Made by a program: the position numbers and the translations under genes. From assembly GCF_057098645.1 (NCBI RefSeq), contig NZ_CM169472.1: a DNA stretch of 64,000 nucleotides. One strand, written 5' to 3'. Shown here one piece after another: positions 51,045-52,030 of the stretch. Position 1 is the stretch's first letter. Every line of letters begins with the position of its first letter. The notes under the pieces were generated by a model. It saw only the letters and a program-made list of their open reading frames with translations, did not search any database and was not told where the DNA came from.

Positions 51045-51299
51045 TCAGGCACCAACAATATTACGCAGATCAAACACCCGACACGCCTTGCCTTCTGAAC
51101 GCGGGATACTGCCACAGTTAACGATCATCACATCGGTAGAGATCCCCACCATCGACTTAATCCGATGGCGTAGCTGGTGGCACACCTGGCAACGCTGCTC
51201 ATGCGTCAATGTCAGGCTGCTTTCTTTCAGCTCTACTTTCACAGAAAGTGAATCAAGATGCCCCCGGCGGTTCACCTCCAGTTGGTAATGCGGCGATAA
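51045..51299 (-). pseudogene. paaK: paaK 3' remnant (phenylacetate-CoA ligase, last ~84 codons only)
   Basis: Frame encodes …LSPHYQLEVNRRGHLDSLSVKVELKESSLTLTHEQRCQVCHQLRHRIKSMVGISTDVMIVNCGSIPRSEGKACRVFDLRNIVGA*, which I recognise as the PaaK C-terminus; no upstream paaK sequence present. Confidence 0.8.
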
Positions 51300-52030
51300 A
51301 AAGCGGAGATGCCTTCATGACGATCTTCTGTTGCCGCCAGCAAGGTGAATAACTGTCGCTCCTGGGCAAGTCCGGCTTGCAAAGCCACTTCCTGCGACTG
51401 GCGCAGCGCTTGCTTTGCCGCTTGTAAGGCCAGCGGCGAGTGACGTGCCATTTTCGACGCCAGCTGTAAGGCGTATTCGAGGGTTAAATCGCTGGGGAAG
51501 ACGTCGCTAACCAGCCCGGCCTGCTGTGCTTGCTGAGCGGTGATACTTTCTCCGCTCAGCACCATTTTGCTGGCTAACGATTTACCGACACTACGGATTA
51601 AACGTTGCGTTCCGCCTGCGCCAGGCATGATGCCGAGAGTGATTTCCGGCAACCCAAAACGCGCGTTCTCTCCGGCAACCACCACATCGCACAACAATGC
51701 CAGTTCGCAACCCGCACCAAGCGCGTAACCGTTGACGGCTGCGATGAGTGGTTTGTTAAAGGCCTGCAATCGCGCCCATAGCTGCGGACGTGTATCGTTT
51801 AAGGTGGCCGCGAGATCTTTTTCCGCCATTTCGTTGAGATCGGCCCCGGCGGCAAAAAAGCGTGCATTACCGGTAATCACACAGACCGAAATACTGCTAT
51901 CGGTAGCCGCAGCTTCCAGTTCATTTACCAGTTGCGTCAGCAGGGCATTATTTAGCGCATTACGTGCGGCGGGACGGTTAAGGGTCAGTAACAATACTTG
52001 TTGCTGACGGCTGACGATCAGTTCGCTCAT
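51272..52030 (-). pseudogene. paaF: paaF truncated (enoyl-CoA hydratase), fused out of frame to the paaK remnant
   Basis: Matches PaaF for about 244 residues to …ATEDRHEGISAF, then reads YRRITNWR* in a frame from paaK DNA; paaG, paaH, paaI, paaJ are absent between them. Confidence 0.8.

Follow-up and report, generated by a model that had tools for sequence, protein, structure and literature searches.

The phenylacetate cluster of Escherichia coli, in the form found in strains of the K-12 and W type and in strain 33F4, comprises paaZ, paaABCDEFGHIJK and paaXY and lies between tynA and pdxI (ydbC). PaaK is the ligase that forms phenylacetyl-coenzyme A (phenylacetyl-CoA), PaaG is an isomerase, PaaH a dehydrogenase, PaaJ a thiolase, and PaaI a thioesterase. 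The repressor PaaX is released from Pa, Pz, and Px by phenylacetyl-CoA rather than by phenylacetate, and its autorepression at Px has been documented (review PMC9493321). Here we describe this cluster in a stretch of 64,000 nucleotides (the window; contig NZ_CM169472.1 of assembly GCF_057098645.1, one strand, 5' to 3'), where it has lost 4,956 bp between paaF and paaK. The window carries the cluster at the same site as 33F4, with the same gene order, Pz/Pa region, and Px operator motifs; it differs in the missing DNA and in a paaF gene that ends in an eight-codon foreign tail. With a probability of about 90%, we take this to be a genuine, clonally inherited deletion in O145:H28 enterohemorrhagic E. 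coli (EHEC) and one step in the decay of a dispensable route.

The O157:H7 strain Sakai likewise has no phenylacetate pathway, and it shares both flanks of the locus, ydbH-ynbE-ydbL and ydbC-ydbD-ynbABCD, with the window. In Sakai, however, the whole feaR-feaB-tynA-paa block is absent between ydbL and ydbC (pdxI; positions 1,983,842-1,990,190 of L007), and the site is filled by two large BigA/BigB-like genes, ECs_2006 and ECs_2007. Unlike in the window, neither a remnant operon nor a repressor is left there. This absence agrees with the published listing of phenylacetic acid degradation genes, which O145:H28 shares only with non-O157 EHEC (Cooper 2014). The partial paa types termed 'epoxidase module only' and 'upper pathway' (Microb Genom 2026, PMC13186573) also combine the epoxidase module, the regulator, and PaaY without the lower pathway. 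Those types are stable architectures, often with a ligase encoded elsewhere, whereas in the window the ligase gene is truncated in place and other genes of the route are decaying. The window locus is a recent wreck of the classical cluster and not an alternative design.

The closest undeleted relative is UTME-3 (NZ_CP168984; veal, USA), which differs from the window by three single-nucleotide polymorphisms (SNPs) over approximately 15 kb of aligned flanks. The two share identical TynA, PaaA, PaaB, PaaD, PaaE, PaaX, PaaY, and PdxI proteins, as well as the same nonsense allele of feaR (W60*, see below). Unlike the window, UTME-3 has kept paaG-paaK; its genome carries no O145 O-antigen cluster. 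Its paa genes are damaged in other ways: a third copy of the heptamer CGTCAGC, 14 nt into paaF, shifts the reading frame, so that annotation places the start of the gene further downstream, and an IS629-like insertion sequence (IS) lies between paaJ and paaK. This damage appears to be independent of the O145:H28 lesions.

Structure and distribution of the deletion

The segment between 49.4 and 63.2 kb of the window is the E. coli phenylethylamine/phenylacetate locus, with the order feaR, feaB, tynA, paaZ, the minus-strand paa operon, paaX, paaY, pdxI, and ydbD. An earlier note, made from the letters and open reading frames (ORFs) of the window, had read the minus strand as paaA to paaE followed by a truncated paaF and the tail of paaK, and had postulated the removal of roughly 5 kb, including paaG, paaH, paaI, paaJ, and most of paaK. 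The ORFs, together with tblastn searches using sixteen proteins of the intact 33F4 locus (L002) as queries, bore out this gene order: paaA-paaB-paaC-paaD-paaE, a 252-residue paaF', and the paaK tail, then paaX and paaY. The features at the junction are as follows.

51272..52030, minus strand: paaF', a chimeric ORF of 252 residues (244 native PaaF residues and eight foreign codons), annotated in RefSeq as paaF (WP_001292342.1)
51298..51302, minus strand: deletion junction, a run of five T with paaF upstream and paaK downstream, placed by base-level alignment
51045..51299, minus strand: paaK remnant, codons 354-437 plus the stop codon (84 codons, 255 bases), 100% identical to PaaK 354-437 in tblastn

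The paaF' product is native through codon 244, in keeping with the note's observation that the match ends at ...EGISAF; at the same point it diverges from E. coli PaaF in chain A of PDB entry 4FZW. Its tail, YRRITNWR, is paaK DNA read in the wrong frame, which replaces the native 11-residue C-terminus and runs into a stop codon at 51274..51272, eight codons past the junction. The tblastn alignment of 33F4 PaaF covers residues 1-249. The last 84 codons of paaK were indeed found in another frame, offset from that of paaF' by two bases (codons of paaF' start at 51301, those of the remnant at 51299). They encode part of the small C-terminal domain only, without the N-terminal adenylation domain; the fragment as called matches Pfam AMP-binding_C_2, and RefSeq labels it an incomplete pseudogene ('hypothetical protein, incomplete, missing N-terminus'). 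The alignment of 33F4 PaaK was limited to residues 354-437, with no second PaaK match within the window. PaaH, PaaI, and PaaJ produced no tblastn match in the window, and the sole match of PaaG was a 37% cross-match to its paralogue paaF. An apparent one-base gap in the paaA-F alignment, resembling a frameshift, was traced to over-extension by BLAST at the edge of the junction.

Alignment to the intact locus of 33F4 and to that of UTME-3 (L003) defined the breakpoints and confirmed the absence of paaG-paaJ. The deletion removed the last 35 nt of paaF, all of paaG, paaH, paaI, and paaJ, and codons 1-353 of paaK. The missing DNA measures 4,956 bp against 33F4, close to the size first estimated, and 6,266 bp against UTME-3, whose interval holds the extra 1,310-bp IS. 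At the junction, the paaF parent reads ...CCGCTTT|C, the paaK parent ...CA|TTTATCG, and the window GC-TTTTT-ATCG; the paaF side ends with ...ATCTCCGCTTT and the paaK side begins with TTTATCGCCGC.... The first three of the five T can be supplied by the paaF parent and the last three by the paaK parent, and the base they share is the T at 51300, next to the 51299/51300 boundary originally suggested. A TTT/TTT alignment of the breakpoints was possible and was not used, the junction having five T and not three. The proposed T-run microhomology is therefore real, but it comprises a single nucleotide, which is close to chance level and carries no evidence about mechanism. Neither a direct repeat of several bases shared by the two breakpoints (the overlap being one T) nor an IS scar or IS sequence was found at the junction.

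The same junction recurs in related genomes. A junction query of 1,151 bp matched 25 of 5,426 complete E. coli genomes over its full length at 100% identity; the remaining 3,142 matching genomes showed it in two separate places approximately 5 kb apart. Altogether, 3,167 of the 5,426 genomes had any match to paaE, paaF, or paaK, which puts the share of E. coli genomes without paa at about 42%. All labelled junction carriers were O145 (O145:H28 or O145:NM), and the O145 O-antigen cluster was present in 25 of 25; twelve other genomes with this cluster, smaller and of unrelated size, lay outside the set of carriers. Sources of the carriers range from patients and cattle to produce, ice cream, and creek water, and the countries of origin include the USA, Belgium, Japan, and Spain. 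An identical 252-residue chimera was found on at least 1,000 contigs of public assemblies, and among the 28 longest contigs with the lineage's exact TynA allele, the deletion occurred in all six distinct arrangements listed except that of UTME-3. None of the complete genomes checked is identical to the window: RM13516 differs by 17 SNPs and in its IS positions, and C325 by 10 SNPs, its IS positions, and a phage-like insertion.

An inversion of 175 bp and a nonsense SNP in tynA (both described below) set the window apart from every other genome, which leaves its assembly open to suspicion and raises the question of whether the junction itself might be an artefact that arose in the assembly or consensus of the source genome. 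The recurrence of an identical junction in 25 complete genomes, assembled independently in different laboratories and countries and on different platforms, together with the chimeric protein on at least 1,000 contigs, rules this out for practical purposes. The deletion is a genuine, lineage-fixed marker of the O145:H28 clone, and not of O145 generally or of the wider clonal group. The junction thus offers a clean, single-copy, lineage-specific marker by which the O145:H28 EHEC clone can be told apart from other O145 backgrounds and from its nearest non-O145 relative. We found no published description of the deletion, a weak negative given that the search phrase 'O145 H28' may miss 'O145:H28'; it appears to be undescribed in papers, though the sequences and the pseudogene annotation are already public. 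It is a well-delimited new example of familiar lineage-specific pathway decay and no new kind of system.

Retained genes and PaaX regulation

The genes and regulatory sites of the cluster that were spared by the deletion are listed here.

55885..57930, plus strand: paaZ, 681 residues, intact
55601..55884, no strand assigned: divergent Pz/Pa promoter region with PaaX operator motifs (motif search)
55827-55841: 15-mer WWTRTGATTCGYGWT, an exact match to the published PaaX operator motif, upstream of paaZ
55614-55652, minus strand: TGATTC-N27-GAATCG, Pa operator-like, upstream of paaA
54671..55600, minus strand: paaA, full length
54372..54659, minus strand: paaB, full length
53617..54363, minus strand: paaC, full length in the window
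53105..53602, minus strand: paaD, full length
52027..53097, minus strand: paaE, full length
50946..50983, minus strand: TGATTC-N26-GAATCG, Px operator-like, abutting the paaX start codon
49994..50944, minus strand: paaX, 316 residues, intact, without internal stops
49422..50012, minus strand: paaY, 196 residues, intact

TynA, PaaZ, PaaA-E, PaaX, PaaY, and PdxI all gave full-length, gap-free tblastn matches to 33F4 at 98.7-99.7% identity, and the retained proteins taken together were 98.4-99.7% identical to their counterparts; for the five full-length epoxidase ORFs, paaA-E, identity to the intact locus was 98.7-99.6%. The window therefore contains the epoxidase of a functional paa cluster and lacks full-length PaaK, PaaG, PaaH, and PaaJ. 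The claim that paaABCDE, paaZ, paaX, and paaY remain intact holds for the window but not for the lineage as a whole, since paaC is frameshifted in 20 of the 25 junction genomes. The intact state of the remnant genes is no evidence of kept function: the sublineages are separated by approximately 5 SNPs per 22 kb, a distance that allows for little decay so far. Such decay as there is in the lineage has struck genes of the remnant route.

The regulatory hardware of PaaX, that is, an intact paaX and motifs at Pa, Pz, and Px, is present in the window. The strict two-half-site operator pattern, TGATTC-N25-29-GAATCA, had no match in the window. With its last base relaxed, the pattern retrieved exactly the Pa and Px sites, two occurrences in 64 kb against 0.19 expected. 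Without PaaK, the phenylacetyl-CoA inducer would not be formed, and the remnant operon is predicted to stay repressed. It is thus plausible that the remnant promoters are locked under PaaX, a view based on the published regulation and on the finding that paaX and its operator motifs are intact. The strain would be expected not to grow on phenylacetate, and, given the dead feaR gene, phenylethylamine would not be channelled into the pathway either. The predicted phenotype is therefore an absence of growth on both phenylacetate and phenylethylamine.

Nested lesions along the route

The earlier note had treated the paa deletion as an isolated event. This view did not survive comparison with related genomes, in which the deletion is preceded by a lesion in feaR and followed by lesions in paaC, feaB, and tynA. 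The genes concerned outside the paa cluster are these.

62245..63150, plus strand: feaR pseudogene, activator of tynA and feaB, with a stop at codon 60 (W60*, 62422-62424)
60510..62009, minus strand: feaB, 499 residues, intact in the window
58178..60451, plus strand: tynA, with a premature stop at codon 669 (W669*, TGG to TGA, 60182-60184), private to the strain of the window

Among the 5,426 complete genomes, the exact feaR W60* allele occurred in 26: the 25 deletion carriers and UTME-3. RefSeq marks feaR as having an 'internal stop' in C325, RM13516, and UTME-3. Because the allele is also present in the undeleted UTME-3, parsimony suggests that feaR was inactivated before the paa deletion occurred. 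A 1-bp frameshift in paaC (position 6278 of L001, corresponding to 53824 of the window) was found in 20 of the 25 junction genomes, and a nonsense mutation at codon 151 of feaB (position 13382 of L024) was found in the same 20; both are absent from the window. For the paaC frameshift annotated in RM12581, we considered a sequencing error and rejected it, as exactly 20 genomes carry the same allele. The minority branch without the paaC and feaB lesions comprises the window, RM13516, RM12761, C325, and two Z1323HEC strains. Of six differences between the sublineages across 22 kb, two are inactivating. By their distribution, the paaC and feaB lesions arose after the deletion, within one sublineage.

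Through the tynA W669* mutation, the primary-amine oxidase TynA loses its last 89 residues. No complete E. coli genome among the 5,426 carries this allele, and the best matches differ at exactly that base. The nested lesions can serve as sublineage markers, with the feaR stop followed by the deletion and then by the paaC and feaB lesions. They also provide a tidy natural case of the erosion of a catabolic route once its regulator has been lost.

A separate observation concerns the 5' end of paaF. The heptamer CGTCAGC is present in two tandem copies in codons 5-10 of the gene in the window (52003-52016, minus strand). A third, frameshifting copy was found in UTME-3, in one related contig (99.9% identity to the window), and in four unrelated backgrounds (97.7%). 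This distribution points to a hot spot of recurrent slippage by which paaF is knocked out.

Origin of the deletion and other features of the window

The favored explanation is that the deletion arose once, by illegitimate end-joining with a one-base overlap and with no IS or repeat at the junction, after the O145:H28 lineage had split from UTME-3. An overlap near chance level would indicate illegitimate joining without pointing to a specific mechanism. With the loss of PaaK, PaaG, PaaH, PaaI, and PaaJ, phenylacetate would be neither activated nor degraded, and paaABCDE, paaZ, the foreign-tailed PaaF, PaaX, and PaaY would be left stranded. As no inducer of PaaX other than the PaaK product is known, Pa, Pz, and Px would stay repressed. 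The proposed order of events begins with the feaR knockout and the paa deletion, followed by the paaC and feaB lesions in one sublineage and the tynA nonsense mutation in the strain of the window. The most likely driver would be relaxed selection on the route from phenylethylamine through phenylacetate to the tricarboxylic acid cycle. That this route is dispensable is suggested by the 42% of E. coli without paa and by the replacement of the block in O157:H7 Sakai.

Four points weigh against this account. The repression of the remnant operon and the lost growth on phenylacetate are predictions, and a single shared base is too little to tell how the ends were joined. The undamaged remnant genes could fit a short elapsed time or continued selection equally well. 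Finally, several knockouts in a very clonal lineage could reflect selection for loss and not neutrality.

The IS found in UTME-3 within the deleted interval suggests a different origin, in which the deletion was a by-product of the scarless excision, by transposase and the IS-excision enhancer (IEE), of an ancestral IS629-like element between paaJ and paaK together with both of its flanks, the ends being rejoined at minimal homology. The 1,310-bp IS of UTME-3 is 100% identical to a copy in the window:

40804..42113: IS629-like element (IS3 family), 1,310 bp, inserted in ynbD and absent at this site in C325 and RM13516

No IS is more abundant in O145:H28 than IS629 (Cooper 2014), and the IS positions vary among the window, C325, and RM13516, which indicates an active element. 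IEE and transposase have been reported to delete from a few bases to more than 40 kb beside an IS, and a model of break, resection, and microhomology joining has been proposed for IEE (PMC9943667; bioRxiv 2023.06.07.543989). The iee gene (Sakai ECs_1305) is present in some O145:H28 chromosomes, but these make up only 6 of the 25 carriers: RM12581, RM13514, RM12761, RM13516, FWSEC0002, and C325. Homology of 4 or 6 nt, but not of 2 nt, allowed IEE to join ends in vitro (bioRxiv 2023.06.07.543989), as against 1 nt at this junction. Moreover, the IS may have been inserted in the UTME-3 lineage, and its ancestral presence is only conjectured. The age of the IS was assessed in assemblies with the same 243-residue PaaF call. 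Four IS-free loci with the 7-bp expansion of paaF came from unrelated backgrounds; since they were only 97.7% identical, their expansion reflects recurrent slippage and not ancestry, and they are uninformative about the age of the IS. The only truly related contig with the expansion (L020) ends where the IS would start. Excision of this kind is, in our estimation, an unlikely source of the deletion.

An alternative to relaxed selection as the driver is that the loss was favored, phenylethylamine and phenylacetate catabolism being costly or harmful in the EHEC niche. Three related backgrounds have indeed suffered different losses, namely, the block replacement in O157:H7, the deletion in O145:H28, and the paaF frameshift and IS in UTME-3. 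Additional knockouts arose in paaC, feaB, and tynA despite only approximately 5 SNPs per 22 kb in the lineage, and the heptamer expansion in paaF recurs in unrelated backgrounds. The expansion is, however, explained by slippage at a tandem repeat, and once feaR and paaK had been lost, later lesions would have been invisible to selection, as neutral decay predicts. The counts of knockouts are too small for a test of selection, and the approximately 42% of E. coli without paa span all lifestyles. Selection for loss is accordingly improbable as the driver. A combined version, which we likewise rate as a long shot, would have the repeated losses in the O157:H7/O145:H28 group reflect positive selection, with the junction as an IEE/IS629 footprint and UTME-3 as the 'before' state. 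If it held, phenylacetate, phenylethylamine, or a reactive epoxide intermediate might matter in the EHEC niche. A deletion by illegitimate joining, inherited clonally during the neutral decay of the route, remains our preferred reading.

Several features of the window and its relatives lie apart from the deletion. The IS at 40804..42113 carries an ALIL frameshifting pseudoknot (Rfam RF01497) at 41662-41778, the only Rfam match in 40000-64000. Elsewhere nearby, an IS is inserted in ydcF in C325, and ISEc8 is inserted in aldA in RM13516.

The 175 bp between paaY and pdxI (49192..49366) are reverse-complemented relative to all O145:H28 genomes and UTME-3, with 100% identity in reverse. A search of the 5,426 complete E. 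coli genomes gave no instance of the arrangement of the window, and no inverted repeats flank the segment. One breakpoint lies within the loop of the intrinsic terminator of paaY, which in the reference reads AAACCGCAAC-gctgatacag-GTTGCGGTTT with a T-run after it; the other breakpoint precedes the pdxI ATG by 1 nt, so that the 5' leader of pdxI is replaced. The inversion could be a genuine rearrangement private to this strain or else a fault in the source sequence.

The insertion that distinguishes C325 (positions 19114-33501 of L005, at approximately 14040 of the window) truncates hicB and is absent from the window and from RM13516. It is phage-like, with genes for a terminase, a portal protein, a prohead protease, and a Rha regulator.

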